A DNA stretch of 64,000 nucleotides, from NCBI GenBank assembly GCA_965205675.1, contig OZ242186.1, forward strand, positions 1,824,001-1,888,000, written 5' to 3'. Source of the DNA: Nitrosopumilus sp. (GTDB taxonomy: Archaea > Thermoproteota > Nitrososphaeria > Nitrososphaerales > Nitrosopumilaceae). Made by a program: the position numbers and the translations under genes. Below are positions 8,922 through 36,159 of this stretch, piece by piece; positions within the stretch are counted from its first letter, which is position 1, and each line of letters begins with the position of its first letter. The notes below the pieces were generated by a model. The model saw only the letters and a program-made list of their open reading frames with translations. It ran no database searches and was not told the DNA's origin.

Positions 8922-9066
8922 CAAATCTTATTGCTGGTAAGTGTCGAGGCTTTTATTTATCTGACTTTCTTCTATGGATCTGTTAAGTAATTAGTAGATA
9001 GTCTACAAATTTTCTTCCTGTTAAGGGTCGCTATCTGGTATTTTTTTAGGAATTGTCCAGTAATTC

Positions 9067-10385
9067 CAGTAGATGGGAAAGTAACTCAATTTAGATCAAA
9101 AACTATCAATCACTCAATCAATCTATTCAGATAGAAAAAGCTTGATGGAAGTATGTCACTCCATCAAATATGCATTGTACTTCATTTGATACCATGACAC
9201 ACCAAGGCGTGATACTATCTAAAGCATTTGAGATTATCACTAAAATAATGTACAATATCTTGTTGTTTCCGTGCTCTAGTAAAAATAACTCACGGTTCCA
9301 CAATGCTGATGCACACAATTCTATCATGTCATTGTGTTTGGGAAATTCATATTCTGAATCTGGATTAAAGAGACTGGCAATGGAATCAGATAATGCTTCT
9401 CCAACTGGTTCATGGTTGAGAAAAATCATATCAAAAATATCACAAAAAACAATGCAAATTCAATTACATCAGTCACTAGATAGTACAGTATCAAAATTAC
9501 AAGAACTGGGAGTATTGGAGCAACCAGTTACTGTAGCAATTGACAAACATCTAATCCCAAGATATGACAAATTGCCAAACCATTCTTTAATAAAATCAAA
9601 ATCAAAAAACAGTACTACTCATTTTGAGAGTTACTGCACCATGCAGTGCGTTGAAAAAAGAATCAGGGCTCAACTAGGTTGTTATCCTTTGTATGACAAC
9701 AAATCAAATGCCGATTTTGTGCGTAAAGTACTCTCTGATGGCATCAATAATGGAATCAAGATTAAACTATTGCTAGTGGATAGGGAGTTTTTCACAGCTG
9801 GAACAATTTCAGAAATAAAACAAAAGAATCTGAAATTTCTAATGCCTGCAAAAAAGAATTCTCGAATCAAAGATGCAATTGTACAATACGTTAATGGAGA
9901 TAGAAAGTCAATCTCGCCATACACAATAAAATCATCATCAGGACATGTAGAATCATTTAATCTAGTTATTCTGCCAAACAAAAATGCAAGAAAAAAATCA
10001 GATATTATTGATCAGTATGTTGTGTTTGCAACAAATATTTCACCAAAAGAAATATCATATAACATACAAAACATTCCAACTGATTACAAGAAACGTTGGG
10101 GGATTGAAACAGGCTATGCATGTGTGGGAAGGTTCAGACCAAAAACCACCAGTTCAAACCAATCCATAAGATTGTTGTATTTTTACTATTCATTGATTTT
10201 GTACAATGCATGGATAATTGCTAATTTGATTATCTCAGAAGAAACTAATGTACAAAATCACAAACCAATAATATCAATTGAAATTCTCAAATATTTCTTT
10301 GTAAAGATAATTATTCATTATTTTAGAAATAACAAAAATAATTATTTTCTAGAATGTGTAACTTGAGTTACTTTCCCATCTACTG
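9067..10385 (+). mobile_element. ISH3/IS4-superfamily insertion sequence with perfect 23-bp TIRs
   Basis: cagtagatgggaaagtaactcaa (9067-9089) / ttgagttactttcccatctactg (10363-10385). Confidence 0.88.
9170..10366 (+). CDS. ISH3/IS4-superfamily transposase
   Basis: VAIDKH, LLVDREF, FATN, YKKRWGIETGY (Y-x2-R-x3-E signature). Confidence 0.88.
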   Translation: MHCTSFDTMTHQGVILSKAFEIITKIMYNILLFPCSSKNNSRFHNADAHNSIMSLCLGNSYSESGLKRLAMESDNASPTGSWLRKIISKISQKTMQIQLHQSLDSTVSKLQELGVLEQPVTVAIDKHLIPRYDKLPNHSLIKSKSKNSTTHFESYCTMQCVEKRIRAQLGCYPLYDNKSNADFVRKVLSDGINNGIKIKLLLVDREFFTAGTISEIKQKNLKFLMPAKKNSRIKDAIVQYVNGDRKSISPYTIKSSSGHVESFNLVILPNKNARKKSDIIDQYVVFATNISPKEISYNIQNIPTDYKKRWGIETGYACVGRFRPKTTSSNQSIRLLYFYYSLILYNAWIIANLIISEETNVQNHKPIISIEILKYFFVKIIIHYFRNNKNNYFLECVT

Positions 10386-30156: not shown

Positions 30157-31494
30157 CTATTTTAGGCCTTTGAACTCTTTACCTAGCAAACTTTTGTACA
30201 ATGCTATTGCATCTGATTCATCTTTTGGTCCAACTATTACAGCAGAGCCTTTCTTCATAAAGCTTACAGATAATTCACTAGTTCTCATCGACAATCCAAA
30301 GTTTCCCGAATTATCCACAATGAAACCTTTTTCTTTTGCAATGCCAGTTACAGCATTCACGTCAAGATCAAATGTTTCAGTCGGAGTAATAGAATATGTT
30401 CGCTTGCCTCTATTTCTACCACAAAGCTCTTCTAGAATCAATTCTTCTTTTTGTATCACCTCAAGTTTACCTGTTCCACAAATTGGACATTGATCAGCTC
30501 TAAATGTTCTAGTACTGTTAAAATCAAGATTTTCTAAATCAATATGTAAGATTCTTTCAGACAAACTTGGTTTTTTTCCAACAATAATTTTTACAGCTTC
30601 TGCAACTTCAATTCCACCAACAAGTGAAAGTATTGATGGATGTACTCCTTCAATGCTACATGTTGGCATTGTATCTTCATCAAGTTCTGGAAACATGCAA
30701 AAGTAACATGCACTTTGTTTTGGTAAAACGGTAAATGCTTGTCCAGAAACACCAACTGCAGCTCCTGTAACAAATGGAATTCCAAATTTTACACATGCTT
30801 TGTTTAATGCATATCTTGCATTAACACTATCAAGTGCATCAATTACAACATCACATCCTTCAACAACTTCTAGTGCAGTATAATCATTTACAGAAATTGC
30901 TAATGCTTCTATTTTACAATCAGGATTTAGTTTTTGTAATTTTTTCTCAGCTACTTCTACTTTAACATGACCCACGTCATCTTCATCAAACATTGTTTGT
31001 CGGTGTAAATTAGATAATTCAATCACATCCCTGTCAATAATACGTAGCGTACCAACACCCATTGCAGCTAATCTAGAAATAATTGGATTCCCTAAACCTC
31101 CAGTGCCAACAACACAAATTTTAGCATTTTTTAATTTCAATTGTCCATTATAGCCAATCTCTTCAAGCATTACTTGACGTGAAAATCTATCAAGTTCTTT
31201 AGAAGATAATTCTTCAGAGCCGCCAGCTACTGCAGGTAAAATGTAAACTTCATCACCATCTTTTAGAACGGTTTGCATGCCATTAGCAAATTTTGCGTTC
31301 TTTCCATTAATGTATATGTTAATCAATGAGCGAGGAGTTCCATCACCTTCTAGCACCCTGCGCTTAAAGTCATCACCCATAATTTCAGAAACTTTTAGAA
31401 GAGCATCAGTTAGAGAATTAGCTGAAACATCAAGTTTCTTTTCCCCACCACTTTGGTTCAGCACAGATGGAATTGTAAATACAATGTTTGCCAT
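30157..31494 (-). CDS. MoaD/ThiS ubiquitin-like domain fused to a ThiF/MoeB adenylyltransferase
   Basis: ILPAVAGG ends the Ubl domain; RFSRQ, GTGGLG, SNLHRQ, two CxxC. Confidence 0.9.
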   Translation of the reverse strand: MANIVFTIPSVLNQSGGEKKLDVSANSLTDALLKVSEIMGDDFKRRVLEGDGTPRSLINIYINGKNAKFANGMQTVLKDGDEVYILPAVAGGSEELSSKELDRFSRQVMLEEIGYNGQLKLKNAKICVVGTGGLGNPIISRLAAMGVGTLRIIDRDVIELSNLHRQTMFDEDDVGHVKVEVAEKKLQKLNPDCKIEALAISVNDYTALEVVEGCDVVIDALDSVNARYALNKACVKFGIPFVTGAAVGVSGQAFTVLPKQSACYFCMFPELDEDTMPTCSIEGVHPSILSLVGGIEVAEAVKIIVGKKPSLSERILHIDLENLDFNSTRTFRADQCPICGTGKLEVIQKEELILEELCGRNRGKRTYSITPTETFDLDVNAVTGIAKEKGFIVDNSGNFGLSMRTSELSVSFMKKGSAVIVGPKDESDAIALYKSLLGKEFKGLK

Positions 31495-32714
31495 TAGTTA
31501 ACTACCGCCGATATTTCACCAACATCTGCTTTCATTGTTGCAGGTTTTTTCAAGACTCTCATGATTGATTCAGTTGCTTTTAGACCATTGCCAGTAACAT
31601 AACATACGACTTTGTCACTAGTATCAATCTTTCCTTGTTCAACCATTTTTTGAAGAACAGATATTGAAACACCACCTGCAGGTTCTGTAAATATTCCTTC
31701 AGTTTGTGCAAGTAATAAAATTGCATCAAGAATTTCCTTGTTGTTTGATTCTTCTGCAAATCCACTATACTGTTCTAGACGTTTCAAGACATATCTGCCA
31801 TCGCCAGGATCACCGATGGCTAAACTTTTTGCAACAGTGTCAGGGTGTTCTACAGGGATTATATCTTTACTGTTTTTCTTAAATGCCTCTACAATTGGCG
31901 CACATCCATGTGGTTGTGCTGCAATCATGTGCATGTTTGAAACATCATCAAGTAATGAAACGGTTTGTAATTCTTCAAATCCTTTACAAATTGCATTAAG
32001 CATAGCACCACTTCCTACAGGCACTATAAGGTGATCAGGTACTTGCCAATCAAGTTGTTCTGCAACTTCAAATGAAAATGTTTTTGAACCTTCGACATAG
32101 TGAGAGCGCATATTGATGTTTACTATTCCAATTCCTTTACTGTCACCAATTTGTGCAGCAATAGTGTTTGCATCATCATATGTTCCATCTACTGCAATGT
32201 AATTTGCACCGTAAGATAATGCTTGAGTGATCTTTGCCATTTCAATATTACTTGGTGCAAATACATGACAGGGTAATCCAGCTTTAGCTGCATGAGCTGC
32301 AGTGGCAGATGCTAAATTTCCAGTAGATGCACATCCTACAGCAGACAGACCAAATTCTTTTGCTTTTGATATTGCAACACCAGCAGGTCTGTCTTTGAAT
32401 GAAAATGTAGGATTCACAGAATCATTTTTTATGTAGAGATTATCTAACCCTAATTTTTTTCCAAGATTCTCAGCTTTGATAAGAGGAGTCATGCCTGCGC
32501 CAATGCTGACAATATTGGATTTGTCCTCTATTGGTAATAATTCAAAATATCTCCAATAGTTATCTTCGCGATTTGCAAATGTATCCTTTGTAATTGTAGT
32601 AAAGTCATATTTTACATCAAGTGGGCCAAAACACTCATCGCAGATATATTTGAAATCTGTATCACACTCTTTTTTACATTCTCTGCATTGCAGTGAGGTT
32701 CTAGTCAAGATCAA
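31494..32714 (-). CDS. thrC: Threonine synthase (or ThrC-like PLP enzyme)
   Basis: N-terminal Zn knuckles, NPTFSFKDR, CASTGN, PVGSG, TGNGLK. Confidence 0.88.
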   Translation of the reverse strand: MILTRTSLQCRECKKECDTDFKYICDECFGPLDVKYDFTTITKDTFANREDNYWRYFELLPIEDKSNIVSIGAGMTPLIKAENLGKKLGLDNLYIKNDSVNPTFSFKDRPAGVAISKAKEFGLSAVGCASTGNLASATAAHAAKAGLPCHVFAPSNIEMAKITQALSYGANYIAVDGTYDDANTIAAQIGDSKGIGIVNINMRSHYVEGSKTFSFEVAEQLDWQVPDHLIVPVGSGAMLNAICKGFEELQTVSLLDDVSNMHMIAAQPHGCAPIVEAFKKNSKDIIPVEHPDTVAKSLAIGDPGDGRYVLKRLEQYSGFAEESNNKEILDAILLLAQTEGIFTEPAGGVSISVLQKMVEQGKIDTSDKVVCYVTGNGLKATESIMRVLKKPATMKADVGEISAVVN

Positions 32715-32899
32715 TATCTACTTTGAGAATATAGATAAAAAATCCTAATATCAAGTTAAGTATTACTTAACTCTAAAGAGGGTAAAATATAATAAAAAAA
32801 TTCATCATTAGAAGGTGAGATAATCTAAAAATTAATAAAAAATCAAGATTTCATAGATTTCTGAATTATAAGGTAAGGTTTTTGTATGTATCAAGCACT

Positions 32900-34203
32900 T
32901 TAGATGTATTTTGCCATCTCAGAAAACATATTCAACTCCCTTATCCTCCATGTTTCAAAGCATGTTAAAAATATAGAAAGCATCCTCATTCCCTGATTGC
33001 TTTTCATCTGTCCGCGAACATTTCTCTGCATGATACACTTTTGAATAGAATTTTCAGTGTCATTGTTAGTTGATGGAATACAGGGATATTTCACAAATGT
33101 AAACAGACTATTTCTTGCAGTTTTTAGTTTCTTACCAAACTGAATCATTTCTTTATCACCTGACATGTATTGACATATTATAGAATCTGTTTGTTTTAGT
33201 AAATTCAACGCATATCTTTTACGTTGTTTCTCTGAATGTTCTTGTATGCTATACCGTCTTGCACGATGCAATGGTTTTGAGAGTTTTCCATAAATGGTTT
33301 TAGCCTGTTTATCATTTGATTTTCTTGCAAGATATTTTGCATCACGCTGCAGATGTGCAGTGCATCTCTGTTTTACATTATCACAAAATACCGTTCTGTA
33401 TGGAGCATATCCATCAGATATTAAAATCCCTGAGAATTTCTTCCAACATTTTTTTAGGATTTTAGCACCTCTACTGTACTCTAAAGTGTGATGAGCTTCT
33501 GTTTTGCTTCTTGCAACCTAACACCCAATCCAGTCTTTCCGTCAATTGGAAATGCTGTCTCATCCATTCCAAGAATCTTTTCAGTCACGATTTCACTACT
33601 AATGTCATGGTACAATGGTTCTAACATAATACTGCCAGTGCGAAGAATAGATTGTACTGTAGTGCAGCTAATTTTCAATCCATATCTTTCTTGAAGAGTT
33701 ACTCTAATGGTATCGTATGGCATTCTCTTTGAGAATAATGAGACTGCCTCACGTATTGCAGAGGAATCAAAGCATCCACATGGTGGAAGATTTCCATCTG
33801 TCTTGAAACTATCAGAGCAGTTCTTGCAATTATACTGATACAAGACATGCTCAGTTGCAATGTATTGAGTTGGTGGAGGGATTTCAACCATTATTCTTTT
33901 GGCAGTCTTGGTTTGAAGGATATCTTCACTTCCACATTTGGGGCATTCTAAACATTTGTGATGTATGGTACTAGTTGGGGTGAATTTCTGTGTTGTGCCC
34001 TTGTGACCTGGTATGCCACCACGTTTTGATTTGCCAGAATCAGAATCTCTGTTTTTCTTTGCATCTTGTTTCTATTTTTTCCATTCAAGTGAATTTTTTG
34101 ATGGTGGCGAGTGTGGATTTTCATAGTATGATAATTTTTGCGTGAGTTGTTTTACTTTTTCTTGTAATTGTAAGATGATTTTCTCATGACCACACTCTGA
34201 CAT
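32900..34203 (-). pseudogene. IS66-family single-ORF transposase with an internal stop and frameshifts
   Basis: MSECGHEKII...NPHSPPS, GGIPGHKG, CPKC, MPY, GMDET, ISDGY, PSTNNDTE; TAG near 34072. Confidence 0.88.
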
Positions 34204-34414
34204 GTATTGTAGAATGATTTAGATGATCTTTGATTTTTTGTGTAATGGTATTGATTTATGTGTGAAGCTTGATACATACTTGAAAACGTGGTTTTAATTC
34301 TATTTTCATAATTATGGTTCCAGATCGCTAAATATCCCATAATCAACAAATTAACATAAAATGTCAATAATCCTAGCGTGGATATTTTATCTCGTAATTT
34401 GAATAGGAAAACTC

Positions 34415-34501
34415 GTTGGGTTCGCCAAGTTAGGTATGACGAGTGTCTGAAAAACACTATCTGTTACCACGGATACATGGGTTCAAATCCCATACCCAAC
34501 G
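34415..34501 (+). tRNA. Type II tRNA with Ser-like body and GAA (Phe) anticodon; variant or pseudo tRNA-Ser(GGA)
   Basis: GTTGGGT/ACCCAAC acceptor, G73, AGTGT-CTGAAAA-ACACT anticodon arm, long paired variable arm, ATGGG-TTCAAAT-CCCAT T arm; one D-stem mismatch. Confidence 0.85.
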
Positions 34502-34784
34502 GGTTATGATATCTATCTAATTATTAATCATAAAAACATTTGTGAGTTTTTAGGTTCAAGAATTATTCTAAAAATGATAAATAAACCAATAGTTTAGAGT
34601 TGGTTTCCTGCCAACAACTTAGTGCTAACTATTAGTTTCTACTCAAAAAAAGATCGCAATAGAAACCTATTGGTTTTTAATTAGGCATAAAAATAGTTAT
34701 CATTACAAAATATTCATAATTTTAATTACTTGTTGTTATTTTTACAAGTTTACAGTTATTACATATTAATTATGAGTATTATTT

Positions 34785-34982
34785 ATGAAGAAAGCGTTTG
34801 ATAAGACATTAGATAGTATTTCAGATTTACAAGATGCCTTAGATTATATTAACACAGAAAAGACAATTTCAGATAAACAAAAAACCAAAGATTTGGATGA
34901 GGTAAATGAACATCTAAAACAAGCACAAGATATTATTGTAAAGGCTCTTGTGATATTTCGGAAATATGAGAAAGACCTGTAA
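34785..34982 (+). CDS. 65-aa helical hypothetical protein (cargo)
   Basis: Amphipathic helical composition; inside the IS66-bounded unit. Confidence 0.55.
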   Translation: MKKAFDKTLDSISDLQDALDYINTEKTISDKQKTKDLDEVNEHLKQAQDIIVKALVIFRKYEKDL

Positions 34983-35829
34983 ACCCATCTAATGTTTTAA
35001 CATAATTACAATTTTTACACTTGTAAAATATCAAACCATTTGAATGAGTTGTTATTTTGATAGGCTCATTTTTTATACATTCAGGATAATTAATGTCATG
35101 TTGTGTTTTCAATACTTACTATTACAAAATAAGTATAAAAACACATTAGTGGGGTATGAATCAAGTCATCTATCCCATCAGGAACAAAAATGGAAACTGA
35201 AAACAAATTCTAGACGTGAGGCTTGATACATACAGGTTTTTAGTTATTTTAGCAAAAAGATGTTTTTGCCAATAAATTATAATTCCAATTATTATTAGAA
35301 CAGTTATTGCAATAGTTGGAATTGCTATGATAAGGCAATGAAGAATCAGATACAAAAGAAATTAAAAGTTTTGTGATGAAAAATTAAATGATAGCAAAAA
35401 TTGAAGATAAGATAGACCAAGGGTTTTAAACGCAAATTTAGAAGGTGGACATATGCCTAAACTAAGAGAACAGATTACATCTGGATCATTTAAAATTAAT
35501 CGAAATGAATACGTCTTAGGTGAAAAATTTCATGATAACTAGAGGCTTGGATTTTAATAAAAAAAGAAGAGACAAAGTTTCTAAGACTGTCATCTAATGG
35601 TGTATACATTATTTAGTGTATTTGATTAGTTCTTTTGATAGAGTAGATTTAGCAGGAATTGAACTATTATTTAGATTCAAAGCTTTCAAAAATTAACAGG
35701 TATTGTACTACAGAGAATTTTATTGGAGAGGGATAATGTTTAGGAGAACAGATTATTCAAACTTGAGTTTAAGATAACAGATGAAATTATACCAGATGAT
35801 GATAAAATTATGAACCAGTATGTTATAGA

Positions 35830-36159
35830 TTATTTTTCTAAACTGTTATGAAAACAAACATCTTTACCTAAATGACATGCAGGTCCAGAAGGTTCAACAA
35901 GGTAAATAATTGCATCTGAATCACAATCAACTAAAATCTCTTTAATTTTTTGAGTATTGCCAGATTCTTCTCCCTTCATCCAAAGTTTATTTCGCGAACG
36001 ACTCCAAAACCAAGAGTTTCCAGTTTTTTTTGCAAGTTCTAATGATTCTTTGTTAGCATAAGCCAAAGTCAAAACATTTTTTGTATTTGCATCTTGAACG
36101 ATTACAGGTACAAGACCTCCGCTTTTATCAAAATCTATTTCATTAATTGACTTTTCCAT
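35830..36159 (-). CDS. hisI: Phosphoribosyl-AMP cyclohydrolase
   Basis: WSRSRNKLWMKGEESG, DCDSD, ACHLG...CF. Confidence 0.95.
   Translation of the reverse strand: MEKSINEIDFDKSGGLVPVIVQDANTKNVLTLAYANKESLELAKKTGNSWFWSRSRNKLWMKGEESGNTQKIKEILVDCDSDAIIYLVEPSGPACHLGKDVCFHNSLEK

Follow-up and report, generated by a model that had tools for sequence, protein, structure and literature searches.

A tRNA gene in the thrC–hisI interval of a Nitrosopumilus genome lies within a probable compound transposon pairing an IS66-family end with a MITE end

How did a tRNA gene come to lie next to an insertion sequence between thrC and hisI in a Nitrosopumilus genome, and what was the unit that moved? Here, we analysed a 64-kb stretch of Nitrosopumilus sp. 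DNA (assembly GCA_965205675.1, contig OZ242186.1, positions 1,824,001-1,888,000 of the forward strand), called the window below; coordinates refer to it unless genome positions are stated. The initial annotation had reported three copies of a 13-bp end, and the sequence GTATGTATCAAGC indeed has exactly three matches in the window, at 32884-32896 on the plus strand and at 34267-34279 and 35221-35233 on the minus strand. Shuffled versions of the window contain 0.08 matches on average, and three or more were reached in 0 of 100 shuffles. The first copy is the outer end of an insertion sequence, distal to its transposase start, the second is the inner end of the same element, adjoining the transposase start, and the third is the outer end of a MITE. 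The 8-bp duplication AGGTTTTT was found where it had been described, outside the first and the third end only (32876-32883 and 35234-35241). Since the inner flanks, TTGAAAAC just after the inner end of the IS and TTAGTGGG just before the MITE, are unmatched, the duplication surrounds only the outermost pair of ends. The enclosed unit (32884-35233) has 2350 bp and consists of the IS, an 874-bp passenger and the MITE; the duplication thus frames the whole and not the parts.

We collected 30 loci around hisI, 19 of which hold both thrC and hisI, and aligned 14 loci of the same genus. The thrC-hisI interval does not exceed 799 bp in any of the 19 two-gene loci (710-799 bp in the 14 aligned ones) versus 3115 bp in the window, where subtraction of the unit and one copy of the repeat leaves 757 bp. 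At the junction, 12 of the aligned relatives carry a single AGGTTTTT and two carry AAGTTTTT; the sequence is continuous across one target copy in all of them, and the right flank past the MITE is colinear with theirs. A tRNA gene in the interval was found in 0 of 14, so the comparison gave what the initial annotation had predicted for it, and no similarity to the compound unit was present in loci L002-L030. Since the relatives have empty sites and only the outermost pair of ends bears a duplication, it can be concluded that the 2350-bp unit entered in one piece, which supports the original proposal of a single insertion between the two genes. The relatives are other species, the closest having thrC and hisI genes about 87% identical at the DNA level, and intermediate states within the lineage are unobserved. 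Contigs from four public sequencing runs were also compared with positions 32600-35500. Exact contigs of low depth cover 34516-35500, and contigs of higher depth with related IS and tRNA copies come from other organisms; no contig in these runs bridges the IS or joins the two sides of an empty site.

The left part of the unit is IS-A, a 1396-bp single-ORF insertion sequence on the minus strand (32884-34279). Its assignment to the IS66 family was confirmed by Pfam: zf-IS66 (PF13005), upstream of the DDE domain, scored 34 bits against a cut-off of 27.3, and DDE_Tnp_IS66 (PF03050) was matched in two separate frames, with 82.6 bits over profile positions 108-283 and 29.8 bits over 13-79. Both ends start with GTATG, and terminal repeats that start with GTA are the expected IS66 consensus. 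Perfect 8-bp duplications surround two IS-A derivatives, namely a nested copy at genome positions 742024-745748 (TCCTTAGT) and a 1018-bp deleted copy at 548289-549306 (AAAATTAT), as well as three MITEs and the compound unit. Only TnpC-like frames are present, and not the tnpA and tnpB genes that precede tnpC in the canonical three-gene elements; IS-A fits the single-ORF subgroup of the family, which we take to be the ISBst12 group.

The transposase of IS-A is broken by a stop, a frameshift and a TAG. On the minus strand it falls into a 43-aa N-terminal piece (34075-34203) stopped at 34072-34074, a 196-aa open frame with the zinc finger and the start of the DDE domain (33484-34071), and a 205-aa C-terminal open frame, which lies in a different frame and has the TAG before it (32903-33517). 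A sister full copy at genome positions 1617143-1618540 is 99.2% identical and lacks the stop behind the N-terminal piece; the frameshift and the TAG are common to both copies, and each copy has one further private lesion. Related IS copies in other organisms have one base fewer at 33519 (or 33521) and another at 33527. Programmed frameshifting was set aside in view of the private lesion in each copy and the two single bases lacking in the related copies. An intact IS-A-type transposase frame was found nowhere in the genome, and movement of the unit would therefore have needed transposase in trans; since both full copies share disabling lesions, a supply in trans is the most likely one. The idea of IS-mediated movement thus holds for the IS66-family ends and the duplication, but the present IS copy could not have moved itself. 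We considered as a source IS-B, a second IS66-family element with about 23 full copies in the genome, and set it aside, as its ends (GTAACTGTCTAGAG...) share only GTA with those of IS-A and its transposase is 24% identical. The window IS has no duplication of its own. Neither has the sister copy (flanks GCAATTCT and TATTTTTT), which shows that the flanks of an element do not always stay intact in this genome; no partner end for that copy was found among 132 end-like sites.

The distal end of the unit, described before as alternative, was indeed the one used, but far from being a chance sequence it belongs to the end family proper, as the outer terminus of an 80-bp MITE at 35154-35233. The MITE family comprises seven copies of 80-81 bp in the genome, the window copy included (six full, one truncated), which are short and non-coding, bear terminal inverted repeats of the IS-A type and make duplications of the parental length. 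Among the five other full copies, three have perfect 8-bp duplications (AAAAGAAC, GATTAAGA and CCTCTTTT), one has a 7/8 match and one a duplication of 7 bp. The MITE of the window is full-length, and no duplication brackets it alone. Its outer end shares 17 of 18 bases with the inner IS end, among them all 13 terminal ones. With the skipped inner end replaced by one of its own type, the unit has, like a normal IS, an end of either type.

Taken together, the 2350-bp stretch is very probably an asymmetric compound transposon in which the outer end of the IS was paired with the outer end of the MITE and which moved as one piece. In the mechanism that we propose, an IS66-family transposase would have paired the outer end of the 1396-bp IS with the outer end of the MITE 874 bp beyond, skipped the inner IS end and moved everything between the paired ends together. 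Insertion into the AGGTTTTT target would then have duplicated those 8 bp. This target is a TATA-like motif in the presumed promoter of a small conserved gene, now a pseudogene, which lies between thrC and hisI. The transposase would most likely have acted in trans, supplied by an active IS-A copy now lost or decayed; both this supply and the order of events are what we infer from the elements left in the genome.

Further traces of the unit were sought. No second compound unit and neither of its inner junctions was found in its own genome, in 120 other genomes of the genus or in a metagenome collection, whose contigs lack both the IS/cargo and the cargo/MITE junction; the mobility of the unit as such thus rests on one insertion. 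A donor footprint of the form TTGAAAAC...TTAGTGGG was not found in the genome. Of the further copies that the initial annotation suggested looking for, a second full IS is present in the genome, and the cargo, like both inner junctions, is unique in it.

An improbable alternative is that the locus was built in two steps, the IS, or an older non-autonomous element with a MITE-type end, entering at AGGTTTTT first and the rest being added later by end-directed or recombinational events which left the duplication outside. Such a history would suit a genome rich in insertion sequences and in nesting, as seen at the nested IS-A copy and in the many full IS-B copies, where the sister IS-A copy has lost its duplication through later rearrangement, and the relatives are too distant for showing intermediates. 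However, the second event must land exactly on an element boundary, and homologous exchange with another IS would import a foreign right flank, whereas the flank past the MITE keeps the order seen in relatives; moreover, the MITE is complete and devoid of its own duplication. Considerably less probable still is that a site-specific recombinase integrated a circular cassette at a conserved promoter motif, with the IS and the MITE as mere passengers. The target motif is conserved in the aligned relatives of the genus, copies of the family tRNA elsewhere adjoin genes of integrated elements, and the passenger modules contain constant direct repeats; yet no integrase lies in or beside the unit, and the repeat, exactly 8 bp long, directly adjoins terminal repeats of the IS family at either side, a transposase signature that five other elements of this family also show. 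That the IS and the MITE inserted independently into resident DNA, with outer 8-mers alike by chance, can practically be dismissed: an A/T-rich target and 60 occurrences of AGGTTTTT in the 2.01-Mb genome speak for it, but two random 8-mers match with a probability of 4.9e-5 in this genome composition, neither element has its own duplication, and the 874-bp segment is missing from the site in all 14 aligned relatives, whose sequence runs on across one target copy.

The compound transposon remains the preferred reading. The location between thrC and hisI of its insertion was annotated correctly, but the site is not simply intergenic, as a TATA-like promoter motif of a gene was struck. The promoter role of the motif is one that we infer. 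Downstream of it, at 35242-35829 on the plus strand, lies the decayed remnant of a conserved gene of about 190 aa, whose frame is intact in relatives: it spans 192-215 codons from stop to stop in 14 of 14 relatives, versus at most 43 codons in the window, where the remnant bears ten private indels, eight of them not multiples of three. The gene evolves fast even among the relatives (mean DNA identity of 64% among relatives and of 60% for the window) and has no Pfam family; another copy was not found in the genome.

Two modules make up the 874-bp passenger (34280-35153), a mosaic drawn from variable DNA rich in mobile elements. This segment is unique in the genome, and its two parts, A and B, have relatives in other genomes at separate places, where they are never adjacent. 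The tRNA module (34322-34657, plus strand) lies between direct repeats AGATCGC (34322-34328 and 34651-34657), and the same repeat flanks copies of the family tRNA at four other loci. The part B module (34690-35146) is bordered, close to its ends, by imperfect direct repeats of 28 nt (34692-34719 and 35111-35138) and has copies in two other genomes, 87% and 85% identical, whose flanks are unrelated and IS-rich. Both the tRNA and the 65-aa ORF that had been annotated in the cargo are present. The ORF (34785-34982, plus strand) is open in both other part B copies and has no significant Pfam or PHROG match; a convergent 59-aa ORF with cysteine pairs overlaps it (34933-35112, minus strand), is likewise open in both copies, and gave no significant Pfam or PHROG family, with zinc-ribbon hints below threshold only.

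The tRNA had been taken for cargo, and as such it stands, although it proved to be a non-canonical accessory gene and not a housekeeping one. The tRNA-like gene at 34414-34502 on the plus strand, detected with ARAGORN and Rfam, has a long variable arm, G73 and the anticodon loop CUGAAAA (anticodon GAA). It scored 48.3 bits against the Rfam tRNA model (gathering score 29) and 96.6 bits against a model of its own family, which we call the X family; this copy has a C:A mismatch in the D stem. The family is covarying and accessory, occurs in at least 21 of 150 genomes of the genus and often lies beside mobile-element genes. In two other genomes IS66-family frames were found near family tRNAs, and at one locus the tRNA alone was matched at the DNA level. 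Among 22 aligned members the anticodon is GAA in 21 and GAU in one; in the loop YUGAAAA, UGA and the final two A do not vary, and the A between them is conserved in at least 90% of the members.

The body of these tRNAs is that of a type II tRNA-Ser, with the long variable arm, G73 and a D arm as long as in the tRNA-Ser of the genome, and in each genome the canonical tRNA that the family model matches best is tRNA-Ser(GCU), with 63-71 bits; the anticodons are not those of serine. Nor is the window gene a canonical tRNA-Phe: it has a long paired variable arm, A37 and G73, as opposed to the short variable loop, G37 and A73 of the ordinary tRNA-Phe of the genome (genome positions 1563605-1563679), A73 being the usual Phe discriminator. 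The genome has one SerRS gene. Two pattern scans of viral contigs, made with exact and hence narrow patterns, gave nothing that would point to a viral origin of the family.

These features allow a tentative interpretation, which we consider doubtful. The passenger may be functional and represent an archaeal class of tRNAs, borne by mobile elements and so far undescribed, in which a serine-type body is combined with other anticodons (mostly GAA for Phe, besides GAU for Ile; UAA for Leu, CAU and UGU in a sister group). Their charging enzyme would then be one indifferent to the anticodon, and they might recode or deliberately mistranslate Phe, Ile or Leu codons. Or else such genes might be portable attachment sites for mobile elements, or decoys against anticodon-directed attack. 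The IS-MITE unit would then be one vehicle by which a code-altering gene spreads between sites and genomes.

The compound transposon is of a known kind with a variation, and the tRNA family is the newer part. The locus offers a clean natural case, with an empty-site control, in which an IS66-family enzyme apparently used the end of an IS together with that of a MITE; a transposon would arise from two defective elements plus the intervening DNA, a route by which miniature elements could capture and move archaeal genes. In ammonia-oxidising archaea, a conserved and covarying family of tRNAs unites a serine shape with Phe, Ile or Leu anticodons; it is patchily distributed and associated with mobile elements. 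If X-family tRNAs are charged and used by the ribosome, bacterial hybrid-identity tRNAs would have a first archaeal counterpart, and tampering of mobile elements with decoding would become testable in an ecologically dominant group.

How does the unit compare with known systems? In the composite transposons Tn5, Tn9 and Tn10, inverted ends of one IS family surround unrelated DNA, with a duplication of the IS-specific length outside. The window unit is like them in that its duplication lies outside the whole and none lies at the inner ends; unlike them, it has one full IS arm only, the other arm being the 80-bp MITE, and it belongs to the IS66 family and resides in an archaeon. Since the IS itself is defective, the unit is wholly non-autonomous. 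In the transposable modules of the ISEcp1 and IS1247 type, the proximal IS end is skipped and a more distant one is used, so that adjacent DNA is carried along. The window unit similarly skips the proximal end for a farther one. The distal end in those modules is a chance sequence of weak similarity, whereas here it is a bona fide family end, supplied by a MITE with copies and duplications of its own. IS-A resembles the single-ORF IS66 elements in its domains, 8-bp duplications, GTA ends and length of about 1.4 kb; it departs from canonical IS66 in having no tnpA/tnpB and a transposase broken in every copy of the genome.

An archaeal compound transposon pairing an IS end with a MITE end was not described in the literature that we searched. 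As far as the available text of PMC6563490 goes, IS-like transposons and tRNA-associated integrated elements are common in Thaumarchaeota, and neither 'IS66' nor 'MITE' occurs in that text (0 occurrences each); its tRNA genes are targets of integration, unlike the tRNA of the window unit, which is transposon cargo. We found no paper on Nitrosopumilus tRNAs with a long variable arm, although the supplementary tables of PMC6563490 and PMC13343696 may list such genes or IS families, and a search for Thaumarchaeota together with a long variable arm returned only the tRNAscan-SE 2.0 paper, on introns. The closest parallels are bacterial. The allo-tRNAs, as described in the available part of PMC5389517, have a serine-type body with a long variable arm, non-serine anticodons and 8/4 or 9/3 acceptor/T stems, and bacterial mistranslating tRNAs of the hybrid-identity kind are reviewed in the corresponding part of PMC11415595. 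The X family departs from the allo-tRNAs, to the extent that these are described there, in being archaeal, dominated by GAA and built on a 7/5 cloverleaf (a 7-bp acceptor and a 5-bp T stem), or 8/5 if a possible eighth acceptor pair C-1:G73 is counted, which is present in 18 of 22 members without covariation. It shares with both bacterial groups, as the available portions of PMC5389517 and PMC11415595 present them, a patchy distribution and an association with transposable elements or selfish modules.

The genome is a single contig of 2,011,361 bases (33.7% G+C), with the window at its positions 1824001-1888000, and its rRNA genes match archaeal models (SSU with 1467 bits, then LSU). Between a putative threonine-synthase-like gene (thrC, 31494-32714, minus strand) and a putative hisI (35830-36159, minus strand), both named as in the initial annotation, lies the compound unit (32884-35233, 2350 bp), composed of the insertion sequence IS-A, a passenger and a MITE. 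The 13-base end GTATGTATCAAGC occurs three times in the window, at 32884 (plus strand) and at 34279 and 35233 (both minus strand), against a mean of 0.08 matches in shuffles. Directly outside of the first and third copies stands AGGTTTTT, and the flanks of the ends read, in order, AGGTTTTT, TTGAAAAC, TTAGTGGG and AGGTTTTT; in this genome two random 8-mers agree by chance with a probability of 4.9e-5. Thus, the ends, their flanks and the shuffles confirm as written the earlier claim of three 13-bp ends with an 8-bp duplication at the outermost pair only.

The thrC-hisI interval of relatives was collected by a HisI search, which found the gene in 33 of 41 genomes (this one included) and returned 30 loci, 19 of them with both genes. 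The interval is at most 799 bp in all 19, in comparison to 3115 bp here. Fourteen loci of the same genus, with intervals of 710-799 bp, were aligned; not included were two loci truncated at the end of a contig, those of other genera, and two more distant same-genus loci (HisI 71% identical; intervals of about 140 and 690 bp). Without the unit and one of the repeat copies, the window interval is 757 bp long and aligns straight across the junction, where 12 of the 14 relatives carry a single AGGTTTTT and two carry AAGTTTTT. ARAGORN found no tRNA in any of the 14 intervals, and BLAST detected no similarity to the unit in the fetched loci L002-L030. This is the outcome that the initial annotation had predicted for such a comparison. 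The relatives are distant (about 87% DNA identity in thrC and hisI), which leaves some room for a two-step history of the unit at the site; we regard such a history as improbable, and the earlier core inference that the whole unit was inserted as one piece stands.

The distal end of the unit is provided by the MITE (35154-35233, its last 80 bases), which occurs six more times in the genome, as five full copies (80-81 bp) and a truncated one. Every copy has terminal inverted repeats, one reading GTATGAATCAAG and the opposite one being the exact 13-mer. Perfect 8-bp duplications (AAAAGAAC, GATTAAGA and CCTCTTTT) flank three of the five other full copies; of the remaining two, one has a duplication matching at 7 of 8 positions and the other a 7-bp repeat. 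Two IS-A derivatives, one interrupted by other insertions (genome 742024-745748) and one of 1018 bp and internally deleted (genome 548289-549306), also lie within perfect 8-bp duplications, TCCTTAGT and AAAATTAT, respectively. Flank comparison revealed no duplication belonging to the window MITE or to the window IS-A on its own. The outer end of the MITE matches the inner, transposase-proximal end of IS-A at 17 of 18 bases, while the two ends of IS-A agree with each other over the 13-mer only; thus, the unit is bounded by one end of each type. An 83-bp MITE-like element in another genome (L142, 9702-9784) has the same terminal 13-mer and an 8-bp duplication, AACAGAGA, and this end family has therefore been active in more than one genome.

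IS-A itself (32884-34279, transposase on the minus strand) is 1396 bp long. It agrees with the IS66 family in the features tested, except for the accessory genes, and fits the single-ORF subgroup. Its minus-strand frames fall into three pieces, matching zf-IS66 (34 bits) and DDE_Tnp_IS66 (29.8 and 82.6 bits). Between it and the sister full copy (genome 1617143-1618540) there are 9 substitutions and 2 indels of one base each. Common to both copies are a TAG and a frameshift at about 33517-33520, and each has a private lesion as well, a stop at 34072-34074 in the window copy and a one-base insertion in the sister. Related IS contigs from other organisms (public runs) have one base absent at 33519 (or 33521) and one at 33527, which would rejoin the two transposase frames. 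Since these contigs are without the two bases, the shared lesion looks, on the sequence comparison, like damage, and programmed recoding of the transposase is disfavoured. No open IS-A-type frame was found anywhere in the genome by tblastn with the two larger transposase pieces as query. Relatives of IS-A (67-80% identity) are present in 14 of 120 other genomes of the genus, and among four loci inspected none has a complete frame. At the sister copy (locus L080), where the flanks do not match and no partner end lies in reach, rearrangement probably followed the insertion.

One transposition event is the best reading of the unit, and it rests on the ends with their outer-only duplication, the empty sites, the 8-bp duplications of the family elsewhere and the defective IS-A. 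An IS-A-type transposase would have synapsed the outer end of IS-A with the outer end of the MITE. The enzyme was presumably supplied in trans, because the lesions are common to IS-A copies that are 99.2% identical, and because the MITEs have spread. The passenger may have been picked up from variable, mobile-element-rich DNA in which IS-A and the MITE chanced to lie 874 bp apart.

A second IS66-family element, 1411 bp long, is also present in the genome as about 23 full copies (e.g., genome 591839-593249); it has ends starting with GTAACTGTCTAGAG and 26-bp perfect terminal repeats, makes 8-bp duplications and retains 21 open transposase frames of 425-513 codons. With the middle piece of IS-A its transposase shares only 24% identity, and nothing beyond GTA is common to the ends of the two elements. 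Several copies are without matching flanks, which suggests recombination between copies. A further genome-wide repeat of about 600 bp (e.g., genome 593250-593838) makes up most of the remaining matches among 79 BLAST matches.

To the right of the target, an open frame of 192-215 codons from stop to stop runs on the plus strand in all 14 relatives; its ~190-aa protein has an N-terminal hydrophobic stretch, a conserved C-terminal part and no Pfam family. The start codon (GTG or ATG) follows slightly more than 20 bases after the conserved motif AAGGTTTTTAGnnATTT, which by position and composition looks like an archaeal TATA/BRE promoter of a leaderless message. In the window, a pseudogene of this conserved, fast-evolving, membrane-anchored protein (intact in 14 of 14 relatives) occupies 35242-35829; its longest open frame is 43 codons, it has ten private indels, eight of which are not multiples of three, and the genome holds no other copy. 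Insertion into the putative promoter may have killed the gene, or may have landed in front of one already dying. The gene evolves fast even among relatives (mean DNA identity of 64%, and 60% for the window), which blurs the order of insertion and decay.

As regards other copies of the mobile parts, which the initial annotation had proposed to look for, the search yielded a second full IS-A, but the 874-bp cargo between IS-A and the MITE is unique in the genome, and the compound unit was not seen at a second site. Search of 120 other genomes of the genus splits the passenger in two. Part A (about 34313-34572) comprises the tRNA together with some 100 bp before and 70 bp after it; many genomes contain relatives of it at 70-84% identity, frequently several of them. 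Part B (about 34690-35146) comprises the 65-aa ORF and, convergent with and overlapping it, a 59-aa ORF that has cysteine pairs; it recurs in two other genomes (87% and 85% identical) within unrelated flanks that contain other transposase fragments. In each of the three copies the two ORFs remain open, and no family matches either of them significantly. In the genomes searched, the two parts never occur side by side elsewhere. Near its ends, part B carries direct repeats of 28 bases that are imperfect, and AGATCGC direct repeats (34322-34328 and 34651-34657) bracket the tRNA module, an arrangement found also at four other family loci (L076, L084, L085 and L088); the AGATCGC repeats may be a cassette boundary or a recombination core.

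The passenger tRNA (34414-34502, 89 bases) is called tRNA-Phe(GAA) by ARAGORN and scores 48.3 bits with the Rfam tRNA model. Its variable arm is long and paired, its discriminator is G and its anticodon loop reads CUGAAAA; the D stem contains a single C:A mismatch. An ordinary tRNA-Phe (genome 1563605-1563679; 75 bases, short variable loop, G37, A73) and an ordinary, intron-bearing tRNA-Ser(GGA) (genome 1663223-1663323) are present, so the passenger tRNA is an extra gene. Two further genes are of the same build (genome 1794331-1794418 and 1261574-1261656), and a weaker one lies at about 533584-533670. We aligned 22 members of this family from 16 genomes. In the loop YUGAAAA the UGA and the last two A are invariant, at least 90% of the members agree at the remaining A, and one member has GAU instead of GAA. 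Changes on both sides were observed at 16 of 22 proposed pairs, with 94% of cells paired; none of 500 shuffles reached these values, and in slid controls 35-46% of cells were paired.

A covariance model of the family was used to search 150 genomes of the genus with a threshold of 72 bits, above a plateau at 63-71 bits in which some weaker members also lie; it found at least 35 hits in at least 21 genomes, mostly larger ones of 1.9-2.6 Mb. Among nine plateau loci inspected, eight are tRNA-Ser(GCU) (L102-L105, L107-L110) and one is serine-type with CAU (L106). At the best loci of the 21 genomes the anticodon is GAA in 16, GAU in three and ACG in one, with one not called. In one genome, five GAA genes and one GAU gene, clustered in about 28 kb, form an additional subfamily whose acceptor stem differs. 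Tandem arrays of family genes occur at L113, in a genome other than the present one (about 9060-9436 and neighbours), where the model scored four times in about 840 bp; the anticodon loop of one of these hits is irregular. The D arm of 17 bases and the discriminator G are those of this genome's tRNA-Ser genes (19 bases and A in tRNA-Leu); SerRS is encoded by a single gene in this genome. Two flank subfamilies that are otherwise dissimilar both retain a TATA-like TTTTAT some 30 bases upstream of the gene and a T tract directly behind its 3' end, and recurrent neighbours include a ParB-like/MT-A70 methylase (4 loci), a DUF4326 gene and IS66-family frames (3 loci). A 32-base degenerate family pattern was tried on the genomes of 185,579 species and matched at 12 places, nine in records titled Nitrosopumilus, two in Nitrososphaerota archaeon and one in Nitrosotalea; it matched nothing in viral contigs.

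A second odd tRNA (genome 1307299-1307386; L079 1000-1087, minus strand) has a body and acceptor stem almost those of tRNA-Ser(UGA), G73 and the anticodon UAA. It has no close counterpart in 30 relatives, where the best matches (75% identity) score the same as the tRNA-Ser(UGA) gene; two other genomes contain bodies of a similar kind with the anticodons CAU and UGU. The ordinary tRNA-Leu(UAA) (A73, genome about 305310-305430) appears to be split by two insertions (introns); it was missed by ARAGORN and the Rfam tRNA model and found with a D-loop pattern only.

In the excerpts of PMC13343696, the highest IS content of its phylum is that of a Nitrosopumilus genome. Literature searches gave us no description of IS66-family compound units in Nitrosopumilus, nor of such tRNAs in ammonia-oxidising archaea, the excerpts of PMC11415595 included. 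The cargo tRNA family is the part of the finding that merits follow-up. It resembles, at least in form, the bacterial hybrid-identity tRNAs, and it falls outside the geometric definition of allo-tRNAs in the excerpts of PMC5389517. The unit works like a compound transposon, and its use of an alternative end resembles mobilisation by ISEcp1-type elements; it differs from both, however, in pairing a defective IS with a MITE.
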